A stretch of DNA of 64,000 nucleotides, taken from sequence record OP172784, one strand, 5' to 3'. Below the pieces are notes generated by a model. That model saw only the letters and a program-made list of their open reading frames with translations, was not told the DNA's origin and did not search any database. Shown one piece after another: positions 28,806 to 49,020 of this stretch (positions are counted from its first letter, which is position 1; every line of letters starts with the position of its first letter). This DNA is from Escherichia phage ECO07P1. Made by a program: the position numbers and the translations under genes.

Positions 28806-28878
28806 TGGGAATTAGCCAAGTTGGTAAGGCACTGGATTTTGATTCCAGGATGCAAAGGTTCGAGTCCTTTATTCCCAG
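28806..28878 (+). tRNA. tRNA-Gln (anticodon UUG)
   Basis: Cloverleaf by eye: acceptor TGGGAAT/ATTCCCA, anticodon loop TTTTGAT, T-arm GGTTCGAGTCC. Confidence 0.85.
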
Positions 28879-28879
28879 C

Positions 28880-28966
28880 GCGAGAATGGTCAAATTGGTA
28901 AAGGCACAGCACTTAAAATGCTGCGGAATGATTTCCTTGTGGGTTCGAGTCCCACTTCTCGCACCA
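28880..28966 (+). tRNA. tRNA-Leu (anticodon UAA), long variable arm, CCA encoded
   Basis: Acceptor GCGAGAA/TTCTCGC, anticodon loop CTTAAAA, T-arm GGTTCGAGTCC, 3' ACCA. Confidence 0.85.
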
Positions 28967-28971
28967 AATTT

Positions 28972-29045
<74 letters not shown>

Positions 29046-29055
29046 ATTTAATTTA

Positions 29056-29129
29056 CTCCGTGTAGCTCAGTTTGGTAGAGCGTCTGCTTTGGGAGCAGAA
29101 TGTCGCAGGTTCAAATCCTGCCGCGGAGA
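29056..29129 (+). tRNA. tRNA-Pro (anticodon UGG)
   Basis: Acceptor CTCCGTG/CGCGGAG, anticodon loop CTTTGGG, T-arm GGTTCAAATCC. Confidence 0.85.
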
Positions 29130-29131
29130 CT

Positions 29132-29221
29132 GGAGGCGTGGCAGAGTGGTTTAATGCACCGGTCTTGAAAACCGGCAGTCGCTCCGGCGACTCATAGGTT
29201 CAAATCCTATCGCCTCCGCCA
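29132..29221 (+). tRNA. tRNA-Ser (anticodon UGA), long variable arm
   Basis: Acceptor GGAGGCG/CGCCTCC, anticodon loop CTTGAAA, T-arm GGTTCAAATCC, 3' GCCA. Confidence 0.85.
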
Positions 29222-29226
29222 GTTTT

Positions 29227-29302
29227 GCTGATTTAGCTTAGTAGGTAGAGCAACTCACTTGTAATGAGAAGGTCGGCGGTTCGATTCCGTCAATCAGCAC
29301 CA
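29227..29302 (+). tRNA. tRNA-Thr (anticodon UGU)
   Basis: Acceptor GCTGATT/AATCAGC, anticodon loop CTTGTAA, T-arm GGTTCGATTCC, 3' ACCA. Confidence 0.85.
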
Positions 29303-29303
29303 A

Positions 29304-29378
29304 GGCCCTGTAGCTGGAAGGTTCAAGCAAGCGACTCATAATCGCCAGATGGTGGTTCAATTCCACCCAGGGCCACCA
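29304..29378 (+). tRNA. tRNA with CAU anticodon (Ile2 lysidine-type by T4 analogy, or Met)
   Basis: Acceptor GGCCCTG/CAGGGCC, anticodon loop TCATAAT, T-arm GGTTCAATTCC, 3' ACCA. Confidence 0.75.
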
Positions 29379-29391
29379 AATTAAGAATTAA

Positions 29392-29478
29392 GGGGAGTTA
29401 TCCCGTAGAGGTAGCGGTGTGGACTGTAAATCCATTGTCATTGCGACTCGGGTGGTTCGACTCCATCACTCCCCACCA
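29392..29478 (+). tRNA. tRNA-Tyr (anticodon GUA), class II long variable arm
   Basis: Acceptor GGGGAGT/ACTCCCC, anticodon stem GTGGA/TCCAT with loop CTGTAAA, T-arm GGTGGTTCGACTCCATC, 3' ACCA. Confidence 0.75.
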
Positions 29479-29482
29479 ATTT

Positions 29483-29557
29483 GGATGTGTAGCTCAATGG
29501 CAGAGCGATCGCCTGTTAAGCGATTGGTTATAGGTTCGAATCCTATCACGTCCGCCA
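29483..29557 (+). tRNA. tRNA-Asn (anticodon GUU)
   Basis: Acceptor GGATGTG/CACGTCC, anticodon loop CTGTTAA, T-arm GGTTCGAATCC, 3' GCCA. Confidence 0.8.
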
Positions 29558-29561
29558 AATC

Positions 29562-29637
29562 CGAGGCATAGCTCAGAAGGAAGAGCAAGGACCTTCTAAG
29601 TCCTAGGTCGTAGGTTCGATCCCTACTGCCTCGACCA
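29562..29637 (+). tRNA. tRNA-Arg (anticodon UCU)
   Basis: Acceptor CGAGGCA/TGCCTCG, anticodon loop CTTCTAA, T-arm GGTTCGATCCC, 3' ACCA. Confidence 0.85.
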
Positions 29638-43304: not shown

Positions 43305-43328
43305 AGTCTCCTTCGGGAGACTTTTTTC
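43305..43328 (+). terminator. rho-independent terminator
   Basis: AGTCTCCTTCGGGAGACT then TTTTTT. Confidence 0.7.
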
Positions 43329-43337
43329 ATTTTACCG

Positions 43338-43367
43338 GTTTACTTTCCATTTGAGCTGTGATACTAT
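43338..43367 (+). promoter_or_regulatory. T4-type early promoter
   Basis: GTTTAC-N18-TACTAT. Confidence 0.6.
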
Positions 43368-43984: not shown

Positions 43985-44147
43985 AAAGCAGATGTTTTTA
44001 ATGAAGCTAATTGAAGAATATGCTAATGCAGTTTCTGACTACGATTATTCTTCTCGTGAAAGAGGTACAGCTTTCGCAAAGGAAGAAATGAAAATCATGG
44101 TTGATGCTCACACAAAACTCCAGAATTTTATTGAAAACGTCATTTAA
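43974..44147 (+). CDS. hypothetical small protein (57 aa)
   Basis: ATG overlapping upstream stop; MKTEKQMFLMKLIEEYANAV...; below ORF-track cutoff. Confidence 0.4.
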   Translation: MKTEKQMFLMKLIEEYANAVSDYDYSSRERGTAFAKEEMKIMVDAHTKLQNFIENVI

Positions 44148-44149
44148 CG

Positions 44150-44179
44150 GTTTATAAGTTGGCAAGGTTATGGTATAGT
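44150..44179 (+). promoter_or_regulatory. T4-type early promoter variant, -10 inside a palindrome
   Basis: GTTTAT-N18-TATAGT; -10 lies in the loop of inverted repeat GTTGGCAAG...CTTGCCAAC. Confidence 0.45.
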
Positions 44180-44207
44180 AATCTTGCCAACTGCCAGGGA
44201 GAAGAGA

Positions 44208-44312
44208 ATGAAAGTTTTGTTTGTTGTGTATGTGATGATTCAATATTATCATCCGATGTTTACTTATAATCTGGTGAACAACATTATTGATATTATTCAA
44301 AGGAGTATGTAA
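44208..44312 (+). CDS. hypothetical hydrophobic peptide (34 aa)
   Basis: GGGAGAAG Shine-Dalgarno then MKVLFVVYVMIQYYHPMF...; downstream of early promoter at 44150. Confidence 0.3.
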   Translation: MKVLFVVYVMIQYYHPMFTYNLVNNIIDIIQRSM

Positions 44313-44314
44313 TT

Positions 44315-44872
44315 GTGAGTGAGTCGAAGAGAATCAATATGAAACGATTAGTATTAGAAGTTAGTCCGCTTTTTGGTGAATTGGCTATAGAAAAAGTAAA
44401 TAACATGTATCGTTTGACGCAAGAAGACGATATGCTATATTTTACGCCTAGTGAAATCATTCATTTAACCCAAATTGAAAATCCTTATACTGATAAAATT
44501 GTAAGCATTAATGATGAGCATAAAATTCATTTTTATTCTTTATGCCCAGGATTTAATATTGAAAGCGAGTCAATATGCTTATCAATTAATAATTGGGATA
44601 ATTTTATAACTTACATTAAATATTTTTATTATTCTAATGAAAGAAAACATAGTTTAAAATGGCTTAAAAATTGCAATGCTATTATTACTAACGCTTGCGA
44701 TCAGAATGATGAAACTGTTTTAAGTGTATCAAAATGTTATGAAGAAGGAGATGTCTTAACTATTCGTCAAATTGATGATTTTCGAGCGCATATTGTCACA
44801 TTTACCAAAGATGAAGCTATTGCGTTAAAGACTTATCTTGATTCTGTCATTCCAACTATGATTTCAAAGTGA
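44315..44872 (+). CDS. hypothetical protein, tandem paralog A
   Basis: 185 aa (GTG start after AGGAG; alternative ATG at 44339); shares GFNIE and C-terminal motifs with the next ORF. Confidence 0.55.
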   Translation: MSESKRINMKRLVLEVSPLFGELAIEKVNNMYRLTQEDDMLYFTPSEIIHLTQIENPYTDKIVSINDEHKIHFYSLCPGFNIESESICLSINNWDNFITYIKYFYYSNERKHSLKWLKNCNAIITNACDQNDETVLSVSKCYEEGDVLTIRQIDDFRAHIVTFTKDEAIALKTYLDSVIPTMISK

Positions 44873-45402
44873 GGAAATATGTGTTTATTTCAAGTGAAAG
44901 CGGTTTAATTCGTGTTGAATTTAAAAATGACATCTTCCTTATTCAAGGAGATGATATTATTAAAATGAGTTATGACGAAATCAAGAAAATTTGCCGTGCT
45001 CTTGAAAGTCATGGAAAAGTAAATGCTACTATCGATATAGGTGATTTATGGGTGACACTTTATGAAGTATCCGAAGGATTTAACATTGAAGATGAAAACA
45101 ACATCTTAGCTATTGATAAAAGAAGTGATTTGTTTGATGTGTTAAAAGTTTATGAACAGTCAAACGGTGGAAGAAAAGCTGCATTGATTTATCAAAAACC
45201 ACATTCATGTGGAACTGCTTCAATCATTTCAAATATTGAAGATGAAACTGATACTTATATGTGTGTTTTAAAGGCTGGCGGTGATCGTCATCCGGATTTT
45301 ATTTCTATTCGTCAAAACAATGGAGAAATTTCATTATCAAAATCAGAAGCTGAAGCTATGATTAAGTATTTAACAACTGTTACACCTTCAATGAAAGGAT
45401 AG
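44869..45402 (+). CDS. hypothetical protein, tandem paralog B
   Basis: 177 aa; shares GFNIEDEN and SEAEAMIKYLTTVTPSM with paralog A. Confidence 0.55.
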   Translation: MRKYVFISSESGLIRVEFKNDIFLIQGDDIIKMSYDEIKKICRALESHGKVNATIDIGDLWVTLYEVSEGFNIEDENNILAIDKRSDLFDVLKVYEQSNGGRKAALIYQKPHSCGTASIISNIEDETDTYMCVLKAGGDRHPDFISIRQNNGEISLSKSEAEAMIKYLTTVTPSMKG

Positions 45403-45404
45403 TT

Positions 45405-45866
45405 ATGATTATTAATGAAAGCTCTTGGCACTATAAATTATTCAAAATGTTTAATGATGAATGGAAACGACCTAAGACACTGTGCGCGTATTTTTGGTCT
45501 ATTGTTATTCCTACATTTTTCGTTTCTTTTTTCGGATGTACTATACTCGCAGGTCTAACTATCATCTGCGCAGAAATTATGCAGAAATGGCTTATTTTTG
45601 GTAGTTTATGGACTCTTATTCCATCAGCATTTATACTTGCCATTTTGCTTGTTTTACTTATTATTGGTTCATTTGTTATTCCTGCACAACTGCGTGAAAA
45701 ATATAAAGATTATAAATGGAAAAAGGATTATGCTTTACATGTAGAAAATATTGATAGGGCGTATAAAGGTTTACCTCCTATTCAACCCAAGAAATCTATT
45801 ATCGTCGAATTTTTAAAAACGCGTAAAGCTAAAGTATGTCCTGTTATTGAATATAAGGCTGAATGA
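45405..45866 (+). CDS. two-TM membrane protein
   Basis: 153 aa with two long hydrophobic segments and basic C-terminus. Confidence 0.55.
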   Translation: MIINESSWHYKLFKMFNDEWKRPKTLCAYFWSIVIPTFFVSFFGCTILAGLTIICAEIMQKWLIFGSLWTLIPSAFILAILLVLLIIGSFVIPAQLREKYKDYKWKKDYALHVENIDRAYKGLPPIQPKKSIIVEFLKTRKAKVCPVIEYKAE

Positions 45867-46876
45867 TGAAAACTGTAGTTAAGTCTTATTTTGGTAGTCA
45901 TCTTTATGGAACTTCTACTCCAGAATCTGATGTAGATTTTAAAGAAATCTTTGTTCCTCCTGCTCGCGATATTCTTATCGGAAATGTTAAAGAGCATATG
46001 AGTAAAAATACTAACAACACATCATCTAAAAACACTAAAGATGATATTGACCATGAACTATACAGTCTTAAGTATTTCTTTAAATTAGCAACAGATGGTG
46101 AAACCGTAGCATTGGATATGCTCCACACTCCACCTGAACTGGTAGTTAAATCTGATTTGCCTGATGTATGGAAGTTTATTCAAGACAATCGTTCTCGTTT
46201 TTATACGACTAACATGAAATCCTATTTAGGATATGTCCGCAAGCAAGCTTCTAAATATGGTGTTAAGGGTTCTCGTTTGGCCGCATTACGTGATGTATTG
46301 AAAGTAGTTAATCAAATCCCCGATCAGTGGGTTGATTACCGAGAAGATGGAACACAAGGACAACGTCGTACTAAAATTGCAGATATTAAGCATCGTCTTC
46401 CAGAAAACGAGTTCTGCGAATGGGTATTCCATAATCATGAGAAAACGGGCCCGCAAACGTTCTATACTGTGTTGGGTCGTAAATATCAAACAACGCTTTC
46501 TCTTATTGAGCTTAAGCAGTCTTTGAATAAACTTGATGCTGAATATGGTGAACGTGCTCGTAAAGCTGAAGCTAATGAGGGCATTGACTGGAAAGCACTG
46601 AGTCATGCTTGCCGAGGTGGACTCCAACTATTGGAAATTTACAAAACTGGTGACTTAGTCTATCCACTCCAAGACGCTCCATTTATTCTCGACGTGAAGT
46701 TGGGTAAACATCCATTTAAAACTGTTCAAGAGTTTTTGGAAGATGTGGTCGATCAAGTAGAAGCAGCATCCATTGAAGCTTCTAAGAACGGTATGCAGCA
46801 AAAAGTAGACATGGGTTTCTGGGATGACTTCCTTGAGAGGGTTTATCTTGAAAACCACCGAAGTTATTATAAATGA
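45863..46876 (+). CDS. nucleotidyltransferase-fold protein (Pol-beta-like)
   Basis: 337 aa; N-terminal GS...DxD signature GSHLYGTSTPESDVDF; terminator follows. Confidence 0.55.
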   Translation: MMKTVVKSYFGSHLYGTSTPESDVDFKEIFVPPARDILIGNVKEHMSKNTNNTSSKNTKDDIDHELYSLKYFFKLATDGETVALDMLHTPPELVVKSDLPDVWKFIQDNRSRFYTTNMKSYLGYVRKQASKYGVKGSRLAALRDVLKVVNQIPDQWVDYREDGTQGQRRTKIADIKHRLPENEFCEWVFHNHEKTGPQTFYTVLGRKYQTTLSLIELKQSLNKLDAEYGERARKAEANEGIDWKALSHACRGGLQLLEIYKTGDLVYPLQDAPFILDVKLGKHPFKTVQEFLEDVVDQVEAASIEASKNGMQQKVDMGFWDDFLERVYLENHRSYYK

Positions 46877-46878
46877 TA

Positions 46879-46902
46879 GGGAGCCTTCGGGCTCCCTTTT
46901 TT
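46879..46902 (+). terminator. rho-independent terminator
   Basis: GGGAGCCTTCGGGCTCCC then TTTTTT. Confidence 0.75.
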
Positions 46903-46925
46903 GTTTAAAATGACGTCACAAAGTT

Positions 46926-46955
46926 GTTTACTTCTATCGCAAAGCATATTATAAT
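46926..46955 (+). promoter_or_regulatory. T4-type early promoter
   Basis: CACAAAGTTGTTTAC-N18-TATAAT. Confidence 0.65.
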
Positions 46956-47001
46956 ATATGTGTAGTTAATTAATTGCTCTTTAAAAATTGAGGAGAATAC
47001 A

Positions 47002-47487
47002 ATGCATATTTTAATGCAATGCCTTGGCAACAAAATTAATGATTTTAATCATAAGCGTGTTAATGATTACATTAAAGACAAACTTGAGATTAAAGACATA
47101 CTTTTTAGAGGACTTACAATAGAGGAAGTGCTATCTTATAAGTTTGAAGTTAATAGGAGAATCAAATTTAAAAGAATAACTTCCTTTAGCAGTGAGTCTC
47201 ATATAGCTGAAACGTTTGCTGCAGAACGCTATATGACTAATATTTTAGTAGTGTTAAAAAATGCAAACGTTTTTGACTATTCGACTGCTATGATTGACAT
47301 TTTAGAAAATTTAATCGCAATTGAAGAATCTGGCCAAACTGACGATGATAAGCTTAACAAGCTTTATGATAATCTTTGCATGGTAGATTATGAAAGAGAG
47401 TTTTTACTGCCAATTAATTCTGAGTTAATAGTTAAAAACATATATTTTGATAGCAAAAAGAACATGCATATAGTAGAAATGGAATAA
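47002..47487 (+). CDS. hypothetical protein, stand-alone early unit
   Basis: 161 aa between its own promoter and terminator; weak FRG / SFS / ERE pattern reminiscent of ADP-ribosyltransferases, speculative. Confidence 0.5.
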   Translation: MHILMQCLGNKINDFNHKRVNDYIKDKLEIKDILFRGLTIEEVLSYKFEVNRRIKFKRITSFSSESHIAETFAAERYMTNILVVLKNANVFDYSTAMIDILENLIAIEESGQTDDDKLNKLYDNLCMVDYEREFLLPINSELIVKNIYFDSKKNMHIVEME

Positions 47488-47498
47488 ATCAACACAAA

Positions 47499-47522
47499 GG
47501 GGACCCTAGAGGTCCCCTTTTT
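47499..47522 (+). terminator. rho-independent terminator
   Basis: GGGGACCCTAGAGGTCCCC then TTTTT. Confidence 0.75.
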
Positions 47523-47548
47523 ATTTCAAAAAATTTTTTCACAAAACG

Positions 47549-47578
47549 GTTTACAAGCATAAAGCTTTATGGTACTAT
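47549..47578 (+). promoter_or_regulatory. T4-type early promoter
   Basis: TTTTCACAAAACGGTTTAC-N18-TACTAT. Confidence 0.65.
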
Positions 47579-47615
47579 ACAACTATCAACTACTGATACA
47601 GATTTGGAGAATAAA

Positions 47616-48584
47616 ATGAAAACTGTAACTATCAATAAGGGTATCTACTTCGGTAAAGAAATCTCTGGAACTTTTGAGCTCTTAGGCGAATGGTTCCCAG
47701 ATAATGCTCCGGTAGATGCACAAGGAGATGGTAAAGTTTTTGTTGAAATTGACGGTAAACGTCGCGGTGTTTGGGTTTACAAATCAGATATTTCATATGA
47801 TGGTGTAAAAGTTGAAGAAGTTAAAGAATCATATGAAGATATGAAAACCCGCATTAATAAAAGATTTAATGTTATGGGAATGATGACGAATGGTATTATT
47901 AATGGAAATATTCGTTCATTAATTATCTCTGGCGCAGCAGGTATTGGTAAAACGTATTCTTTAGATAAAGCTTTAAATAAAGCAAATGATAATGGATACA
48001 TTGAATATAAAAGCATTAATGGTAAAATCTCTGGTATTGGTCTTTATGAGCAGCTTTGGAATAATCGTGAAGAGAACTCTGTCCTTTTGATTGATGATGT
48101 GGATGTTTTCTCTGATATGGACATTCTTAATCTTCTAAAAGCTGCTCTGGACACTGGAGAGACCCGTAAAGTCTGCTGGAGCACTGCATCTTCTTACTTA
48201 GAAGAAAAAGGCATTGACCGTGAGTTTGAATTTAAAGGAACGATTGTTTTTATCACAAACGTTGACATTGACCGCGAATTAGACCGTGGTACTAAACTTG
48301 CTCCACACTTACAAGCATTGGTGTCCCGCTCAGTTTATTTGGATTTGGGTGTTCACACTAATGAAGAAATTATGGTCAGGGTTGAAGATGTTATTCTTTC
48401 AACTGACATGATGCAAAAGCGCGGTCTTTCTGATGAAGAAACTTATAAAGCATTATCATGGATGAAAGTCAATGTTAATCGTTTACGCAATGTTTCACTG
48501 CGTACTGCTCTTTATCTTGCTGACTTTATTATGACCGACAAAAACGGTTGGGAAGAAATTGCTGAGGTTACTCTTCTGAAATAA
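47616..48584 (+). CDS. P-loop ATPase
   Basis: Start MKTVTINKG after GGAGAA; Walker A GAAGIGKT, Walker B LLIDDVD. Confidence 0.6.
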   Translation: MKTVTINKGIYFGKEISGTFELLGEWFPDNAPVDAQGDGKVFVEIDGKRRGVWVYKSDISYDGVKVEEVKESYEDMKTRINKRFNVMGMMTNGIINGNIRSLIISGAAGIGKTYSLDKALNKANDNGYIEYKSINGKISGIGLYEQLWNNREENSVLLIDDVDVFSDMDILNLLKAALDTGETRKVCWSTASSYLEEKGIDREFEFKGTIVFITNVDIDRELDRGTKLAPHLQALVSRSVYLDLGVHTNEEIMVRVEDVILSTDMMQKRGLSDEETYKALSWMKVNVNRLRNVSLRTALYLADFIMTDKNGWEEIAEVTLLK

Positions 48585-48685
48585 TTCATAAGAGGACTTC
48601 TATGACAAAAAGGCAGTTCAGAAATAGATTATATGGACTGCCATCAAAAAGATGACTAGAATTAAACTGGTGAATGGAGGTAGTG

Positions 48686-48988
48686 ATGTTATACTCAAAG
48701 GCTCGTGAAATTTACGAAACTAAGATTAAAGAAGCTGTATTTCAATTCGCAACGACAATGCGATGGACAAATGACTGGGAGTATTCAAAAAATCATAAGA
48801 AGCCCATGGTGACAAGAAAGGCTCATATGTTAGTGTTAATAGACCGTGAGCAGATTAAAGCCCGAGAAGCCCTCCAGAATCATAAAAAGGCTGCCTTTGA
48901 ATGGTTTATGGATAACACTGCTCCTGAGACTAAGAAAGCAGTGAGCGCATGGTTCAGTGGAAAAAATTGTGAAAGAAGTTTCTTTTAG
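48686..48988 (+). CDS. hypothetical basic protein
   Basis: Start MLYSKAREIY after GGAGG Shine-Dalgarno. Confidence 0.5.
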   Translation: MLYSKAREIYETKIKEAVFQFATTMRWTNDWEYSKNHKKPMVTRKAHMLVLIDREQIKAREALQNHKKAAFEWFMDNTAPETKKAVSAWFSGKNCERSFF

Positions 48989-48990
48989 TG

Positions 48991-49020
48991 GTTTACAAGA
49001 CTGTTCCTCTGTGGTACTAT
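48991..49020 (+). promoter_or_regulatory. T4-type early promoter
   Basis: GTTTAC-N18-TACTAT. Confidence 0.6.

Follow-up and report, generated by a model that had tools for sequence, protein, structure and literature searches.

Within the family of the protein considered here, the product of an nrdC.11 gene of Escherichia phage ECO07P1 (sequence record OP172784, of which a stretch of 64,000 nucleotides, hereafter the window, was analysed), the members characterised biochemically are two Pseudomonas enzymes, PfRlaP and PaRlaP, whose genes lie between rtcB and rtcA and which were described in a preprint of December 2025 (PMC12776372). According to that work, these enzymes add one or two nucleoside or deoxynucleoside monophosphates to the 3'-OH of RNA, not to DNA or protein, with little specificity for the nucleoside triphosphate (NTP) and a preference for Mn2+, and they favour the 3' end derived from a broken anticodon loop, as provided by broken-tRNA mimics. 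When a tRNA-Asp lacking one nucleotide was treated with RlaP before ligation, its aminoacylation was raised, and the authors proposed that RlaP is an antidote to nucleotide-removing "smart" ribotoxins such as RloC. In the crystal structure of PfRlaP, from the same study, the nucleotidyltransferase (NTase) domain and a helical domain form a cleft, and the last helix packs back on the NTase domain.

Davidov and Kaufmann (PMC2610378) showed that the wobble nucleotide is removed by RloC and argued that this lesion could defeat the T4 enzymes Pnkp and Rnl1, a question that they left open. T4 encodes Pnkp, Rnl1 and Rnl2; the 'healing and sealing' pair Pnkp and Rnl1 are the partners that we propose for NrdC.11, although they are unrelated proteins whose genes are not adjacent to nrdC.11 in T4-like genomes. 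In jumbo phages, the distribution of RlaP was reported to mirror that of RNA ligases (Iyer et al., PMC7824862). The reading put forward here, to which we give a probability of about 0.55, is that NrdC.11 is an accessory RNA 3'-end NTase that may let Pnkp and Rnl1 repair nucleotide-deficient tRNAs, such as those left by RloC.

NrdC.11 as a long-form RlaP-family nucleotidyltransferase

By sequence comparison, the open reading frame (ORF) in question (Table 1) is the ortholog of T4 nrdC.11 and a long-form RlaP (PF10127) of the DNA polymerase beta (Pol-beta) NTases, a family assignment that we regard as firm. Its product shares its length and, from end to end, 96% of its residues with T4 NrdC.11 (NP_049709.1), which is recorded as "nucleotidyltransferase" in RefSeq and as 'uncharacterized 38.9 kDa protein in nrdC-mobD region' in UniProt. 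The Pfam family PF10127 ("RlaP, RNA repair pathway DNA polymerase beta family"; gathering score 23 bits) matched residues 8-135 with 42.7 bits (E 7e-11) and is also precomputed for 120 of 120 close relatives, and PHROG 388 ('nucleotidyltransferase') was matched end to end (E 8e-135). Among cluster representatives at 50% identity, 3393 matched at E<=1e-3, of which 819 had E<=1e-30, and almost all did so over the full length; homologs were also present in 1572 phage genome records, mostly of T4-like phages, with Escherichia, Klebsiella, Shigella, Aeromonas, Acinetobacter and Vibrio as the main hosts. With so many homologs, the ORF is real and far beyond chance. Many homologs in GenBank and UniRef are labelled 'thioredoxin', apparently from the gene name nrdC and likely in error, and one is entered as 'HNH homing endonuclease', which also looks like an annotation error.

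The N-terminus of the protein is MMKTVVKSYFGSHLYGTSTPESDVDF. The annotation of T4 uses the second ATG (45866), which gives 336 amino acids, and both candidate start codons overlap the stop codon of the upstream gene within the sequence ATGATGA, an arrangement that suggests translational coupling.

An alignment of 43 NrdC.11 relatives with 34-54% identity was used to assess conservation. Residues G11, S12, G16, S22, D23, D25, N57, D63, Y124, Y132, R231, K244, H248, R251 and P268 were invariant, and D61, D85, K131, R138, D242 and W243 were nearly so. As a reference for classical RlaPs, six proteins matching PF10127 over positions 1-248 of 249 were aligned, and a profile-profile comparison by hhalign paired residues 4-108 of NrdC.11 with them (probability 72%, E 3.3e-5). 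In this alignment, the GS of NrdC.11 fell on the GS of the classical proteins, D23 and D25 on D39 and D41, D63 on the invariant Asp of the 'LDxNGWD' motif (D72), and D85 on the invariant E94. The aligned residues thus point to the presence in NrdC.11 of the Pol-beta NTase catalytic set, formed by GS, DxD and a third conserved Asp.

An AlphaFold2 model of the protein, built from the alignment of the 43 relatives, had a mean predicted local distance difference test score of 93.4 and a predicted template modelling (TM) score of 0.81. An N-terminal alpha/beta NTase domain was predicted, with strands at 3-10, 24-31, 45-49 and 62-68 and helices up to about residue 150, followed by a beta-rich insert in a sequence-variable region (about 155-209) and by a C-terminal helical bundle (214-336), with terminal helices. 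The GS pair was located at the junction between strand 1 and a helix, and D23 and D25 at the start of strand 2; the predicted placement of D23, D25 and D63 is the canonical one for the carboxylates of Pol-beta NTases. An earlier reading of this DNA, made from the sequence alone (the sequence-only reading), had assigned the protein to the Pol-beta superfamily from a GS and DxD signature, and this assignment was borne out by the PF10127 match, the invariant carboxylates and the predicted fold. Both motifs were found, with a spacing of ten residues and not of nine as that reading had it. The profile and structure comparisons for which it had called indicated D63 as the probable third carboxylate and a helical bundle as the C-terminal domain, with the NTase fold and the catalytic acidic residues retained. 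We consider it close to certain that the gene product belongs to the RlaP-family NTases and that its active site is intact.

Table 1. Positions of nrdC.11, of its putative catalytic codons and of neighbouring features in the window, and loci with paired RlaP genes in bacteria and archaea.
Feature	Position or locus	Strand	Basis or remark
NrdC.11 ortholog coding sequence, long-form RlaP-family NTase	45863..46876	+	337 amino acids from first ATG
G11-S12...D23-V-D25 codons (GS-x10-DxD; putative NTP/metal-binding signature of Pol-beta NTases)	45893..45937	+	alignment, model
D63 codon, probable third catalytic carboxylate	46049..46051	+	invariant in 43/43; opens strand 62-68
D85 codon in 'ALDMLH' helix, near-invariant acidic residue, putative role	46115..46117	+	at least 90% conserved
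Two tandem y05I/MobD.1-family paralogs (ORFs 44315, 44869)	44315..45402	+	PF24449 and PF24448 in both
Upstream membrane protein, 153 amino acids, co-transcribed	45405..45866	+	PHROG 944 'membrane protein', E 1.7e-48
Intrinsic terminator, AGGGAGCC-UUCG-GGCUCCCU and T run	46878..46903	+	terminator scan; annotated in phage G29
Promoter-like TTTATA-17-TATAGT with TG extension	44151..44179	+	consensus scan; putative function
Terminator-like hairpin (43305-43322), then T4-early-type promoter-like element	43305..43367	+	terminator scan; sequence reading
Long and classical RlaP pairs	L102, L107, L110, L115, L132, L138, L150, L152, L160, L161, others; L005/L006		

With the classical RlaPs of Pseudomonas fluorescens and P. 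aeruginosa, encoded in an rtcB-rlaP-rtcA operon, NrdC.11 shares PF10127, the aligned GS, DxD, third Asp and helix-borne acid, and, as far as the model indicates, a layout consisting of an NTase domain and a helical C-terminal part. It differs from them in its length (337 amino acids against about 255-270, that is, around 80 more), in the extra beta-rich insert and in a C-terminal half that was not aligned at the profile level. The two forms also fall into separate clusters of the published sequence similarity network, NrdC.11 in cluster 5 and the classical RlaPs in cluster 1a (PMC12776372). The AlphaFold2 model could be aligned over its full length with NTases of jumbo phages, with target-normalised TM-scores of 0.49-0.55, and two of these, from Klebsiella phage Eowyn and Pseudomonas phage PaBG, are classical-RlaP matches.

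No chain of the Protein Data Bank (PDB) was matched when either the protein sequence or the family profile served as the query. A Foldseek comparison with the PDB agreed with the NTase fold, with weak matches only (best E 2e-3). The nearest solved folds were Hailong HalB, kanamycin NTase and similar enzymes, among PDB chains that do not include the PfRlaP structure, and LinB, ANT enzymes (aminoglycoside/lincosamide NTases), DrrA, GlnE and Tam41 ranked lower. HalB (PDB 9dbh) and kanamycin NTase (1kny/6nlt) are 10-16% identical to NrdC.11, have no sequence-level relationship to it, and differ from it in their partners and substrates. No match to the protein was found in NCBIfam.

Linkage to RNA-repair genes in cellular genomes

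Among bacteria and archaea, the NrdC.11 subfamily shows genomic linkage to RNA-repair genes. Homologs of RtcB, RtcA, Pnkp or Rnl1 were found at 8 kb or less from the NrdC.11-type gene in 13 of 82 loci, and RtcB was present in 10 of these 13, compared with about 0.3-1.6 expected if it were randomly placed; the binomial p ranges from 2e-12 to 6e-6 according to the density of RtcB, assuming one to a few copies per genome. A single contig of 4 kb (L088, 80-3626) carries a long RlaP together with a T4-type Pnkp and a T4-type Rnl1, and in another locus (L117, 5724-9383) rtcB, rtcA and the long RlaP follow each other in an operon-like array. An rtcB-like gene, a long RlaP and a classical RlaP occur in this order in L160 (2064-4883), and in L130 (6401-10966) a Pnkp-phosphatase-like gene accompanies the long RlaP, with rtcB 2 kb off; all four of these arrangements resemble operons.

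In 24 of 71 bacterial or archaeal loci (Table 1), the gene directly after the long form on the same strand encodes a classical full-length PF10127 RlaP, and the residues aligned with the catalytic motifs were kept in both proteins. As the long form so often lies beside the classical one in bacteria, the two are probably not redundant, and the pairing suggests that they divide the work or form a heteromer. On one contig resembling a conjugative element, a Fic gene precedes such a pair.

No tandem of long and classical RlaP was found in 78 viral loci. Classical RlaP was detected in 86 phage records, none of them T4-like, and T4-like phages carry the long form only. On three distant viral contigs (L066, L082 and L083), a DnaB/Toprim primase-helicase and a family A DNA polymerase are encoded directly after the NrdC.11-like gene, a setting that differs from that in T4-like phages.

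Proposed function of NrdC.11 and alternatives

By analogy with the tested members of its family, NrdC.11 would be expected to add nucleotides to RNA 3' ends, and we infer that it acts in the repair pathway of T4. We propose that an NTP and two divalent metals would be bound by the N-terminal NTase domain (G11-S12, D23, D25 and D63). When a host anticodon nuclease of the RloC type had cut a tRNA and removed a nucleotide, leaving a gap, T4 Pnkp would take off the 3' phosphate, NrdC.11 would refill the lost nucleotide and Rnl1 would seal the nick; the 3'-OH product of NrdC.11 would be compatible with the 5'-phosphate ligase chemistry of Rnl1. The stronger proposal, that NrdC.11 is the missing third tRNA-repair enzyme of T4 against RloC-type nucleases and that the long RlaP is functionally distinct from the classical one, is put forward tentatively, and we hold it to be rather doubtful.

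The numbers of phage records carrying NrdC.11, Rnl1 and Pnkp are nearly equal among hosts of T4-like phages (640/638/679 for Escherichia, 83/83/84 for Shigella, 75/77/77 for Aeromonas and 69/69/70 for Acinetobacter, respectively), in agreement with co-occurrence of the three genes. This co-distribution is, however, confounded by the shared ancestry of T4-like phages, and several further points weigh against a role in tRNA repair. Phages of Streptomyces, Mycobacterium and Campylobacter carry Pnkp or Rnl1 without NrdC.11. Neither in the window nor in T4 does nrdC.11 lie beside RNA ligase or other RNA-repair genes, the neighbourhood to which the RlaP family owes its name, as pseT and rnlA of T4 are about 80 kb away and rnlB is likewise tens of kilobases distant. 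Of the 78 viral loci, only 6 had a homolog of Pnkp, Rnl1 or RtcB within 10 kb, a number that does not clearly exceed what chance would give in phages of 160-340 kb. Nor did a Pfam scan detect an RNA ligase family, a Pnkp family or any recurrent partner among the three genes on each side in 25 distant viral loci. Furthermore, the Pfam and hhalign matches to RlaP are limited to the N-terminal 105-130 residues or so, and, as the C-terminal half, including the insert, diverges in sequence, the substrate specificity may differ from that of the classical enzymes. The preprint on RlaP places T4 NrdC.11 among the RlaPs by name with the label 'RlaP of unknown function', and its discussion notes that non-templated addition restores the correct nucleotide in only a fraction of the molecules (PMC12776372). 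Finally, T4 nrdC.11 can be deleted on laboratory hosts (PMC9825161), which fits an accessory role, and is what would be expected of an accessory counter-defence gene, but provides no positive evidence for one.

Ten tRNA genes are present in the window at 28806-29637 (Gln, Leu, Gly, Pro, Ser, Thr, Met/Ile(CAT), Tyr, Asn and Arg), and those for tRNA-Gln and tRNA-Pro have no encoded 3' CCA. T4 has eight tRNA genes and is not known to carry those for Tyr and Asn.

The alternative closest to the tRNA-repair role is a general tailing of RNA 3' ends, either to mend the 3' ends of tRNAs, including the CCA-less ones of the phage, or to tag host RNAs and alter their stability. Such an activity would be in line with the two of ten window tRNAs without CCA, with the position of the gene away from repair genes in phages, and with the labelling of full-length tRNA- and rRNA-sized RNAs and of single-stranded RNAs by RlaPs in vitro, with any NTP (PMC12776372). 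The addition of one or two nucleotides with little NTP specificity is nevertheless ill suited to building CCA, and no Pfam or NCBIfam match to the head domain of CCA-adding enzymes and poly(A) polymerases (PF01743), nor to a CCA-adding enzyme family in general, was obtained. Moreover, maturation of CCA-less T4 tRNAs reportedly needs the host cca enzyme (Deutscher, Foulds and McClain, 1974), and the subfamily is linked in cellular genomes to RtcB, RtcA, Pnkp and Rnl1; tailing is thus considered unlikely, though less so than the functions discussed below.

The sequence-only reading had also suggested that the protein could nucleotidylate a host target. This can be right only in so far as the likely target is an RNA, such as tRNA, because the characterised RlaPs extend RNA 3' ends and were inactive on protein and DNA (PMC12776372). 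Modification of a host or phage protein by an AMPylase-type NTase, as in MNT antitoxins, DrrA and GlnE, appears quite improbable, since the two RlaPs tested did not modify E. coli proteins (PMC12776372), the minimal NTase family PF01909 was matched below its threshold (E 0.084; 13.7 bits against a cut-off of 21), and no HEPN or other protein partner was conserved beside the phage gene in the 25 distant viral loci, nor did any HEPN gene adjoin nrdC.11 in the window. The similarity to HalB, an NTase encoded beside the membrane effector HalA, would allow NrdC.11 to be an oligonucleotide synthase, whose short oligo(d)A-type products would serve as a signal or as a decoy that keeps a host Hailong-type effector off. 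This similarity is confined to the generic NTase core, however, HalB being the nearest only among structures that lack the RlaP crystal, while the sequence assigns NrdC.11 to PF10127 and RlaPs need an RNA primer and stop after one or two additions, so that such a function is highly improbable. The sequence-only reading named the fold of cGAS/DncV-like and minimal NTases and suggested that the protein could synthesise or modify a signalling nucleotide. On this view, a cGAS/DncV-like enzyme would make or intercept a cyclic or linear signalling nucleotide and so interfere with CBASS, Pycsar or Thoeris. Apart from the shared Pol-beta NTase signature nothing spoke for it: PADLOC defence-family models and the CD-NTase, OAS and SMODS families of Pfam gave no match to NrdC.11, and no cGAS, DncV, CD-NTase or OAS chain was among the solved-fold matches, so that this claim was largely refuted. 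Least probable of all is a small-molecule NTase of the ANT type, which is suggested by distant fold matches with 8-14% identity; no ANT family of Pfam was matched, the modification of antibiotics would be of no obvious use to a lytic phage, and the substrates of the tested RlaPs are RNAs.

Transcription unit in the window and significance

The window is a T4-like (Tequatrovirus) segment, whose region 44000-49000 is 97.5% identical to Escherichia phage EP01 and is matched by 785 phage records. The tandem ORFs upstream of nrdC.11, 44315 and 44869, each have the N- and C-terminal y05I domains, with 28% identity between the two products (E 2e-11), and the former is the ortholog of T4 MobD.1 (86% identity). 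The membrane protein encoded next to them, for which the T4 regions examined hold no equivalent, contains two long hydrophobic blocks (about 29-60 and 62-98).

Downstream of nrdC.11, the terminator hairpin (46878-46897) consists of an 8-bp stem with six GC pairs, capped by a UUCG loop and followed by a T6 tail, and its folding energy of -18.3 kcal/mol corresponds to z = -4.1 with respect to shuffled sequences. The promoter-like sequence upstream of the tandem ORFs (Table 1) is a candidate promoter for the transcript ending at 46897. Farther upstream, a putative early-type element (GTTTAC at 43338-43343 and TACTAT at 43362-43367) agrees with the consensus at 8 of 12 positions, below the threshold of the scan, and a search for MotA boxes between 43300 and 46900 revealed no middle promoter. 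The hairpins at 43305-43322 and 46878-46897 would therefore bound a multi-gene block in which the NTase is the last cistron. The sequence-only reading had described the NTase gene as a terminator-bounded early unit lying next to two tandem paralogs and a two-transmembrane protein. The neighbours were as described, with y05I domains in both paralogs and PHROG 944 together with the two hydrophobic blocks in the membrane protein; the strong terminator was also found and the NTase is the last gene of a unit of prereplicative type, but it is not bounded on its own.

T4 nrdC.11 has the same location, between the mobD.x genes and tk on its upstream side and nrdC.10 on its downstream side. The gene directly upstream of it in T4 is mobD, which encodes an HNH homing endonuclease (locus L001, 14430-15209), whereas in the window mobD is absent and its place is taken by the second, diverged y05I/MobD.1 paralog and the membrane protein (44869-45866). 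The window alone has an additional ADP-ribosyltransferase-like cassette between the NTase gene and nrdC.10 (46927-47520), which is self-contained and consists of an early-type promoter-like TTTACT-17-TATAAT, an ORF and its own terminator (47496-47520). This ORF (47002-47487, + strand, 161 amino acids) matches the PHROG 'RNA polymerase ADP-ribosylase' (E 1.8e-23), is annotated as ModA/ModB-like in relatives, and is missing from the T4 regions examined. The NrdC.10 ortholog that follows (47604-48584, + strand) is 99% identical to that of T4 and has a P-loop, GAAGIGKT, with weak sub-threshold matches to AAA/STAND NTPase families of Pfam.

As a discovery, the assignment of NrdC.11 is limited, because RefSeq, Pfam and the 2025 preprint, the last with a functional prediction, already covered the gene as well as the fold class and family to which it belongs; the sequence-only reading had not identified it as T4 nrdC.11. 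What is new here is the linkage of the NrdC.11 subfamily to RNA-repair genes and the pairing of long and classical RlaPs in cellular genomes, and the bacterial tandem provides a concrete lead for RtcB-linked RNA repair. Whether the repair system of T4 copes with nucleotide-excising nucleases like RloC has been a question since 2008, that is, for 18 years. If the proposed role of NrdC.11 is true, a gap-filling NTase encoded by the phage would answer it, adding a third step to the textbook repair pathway.

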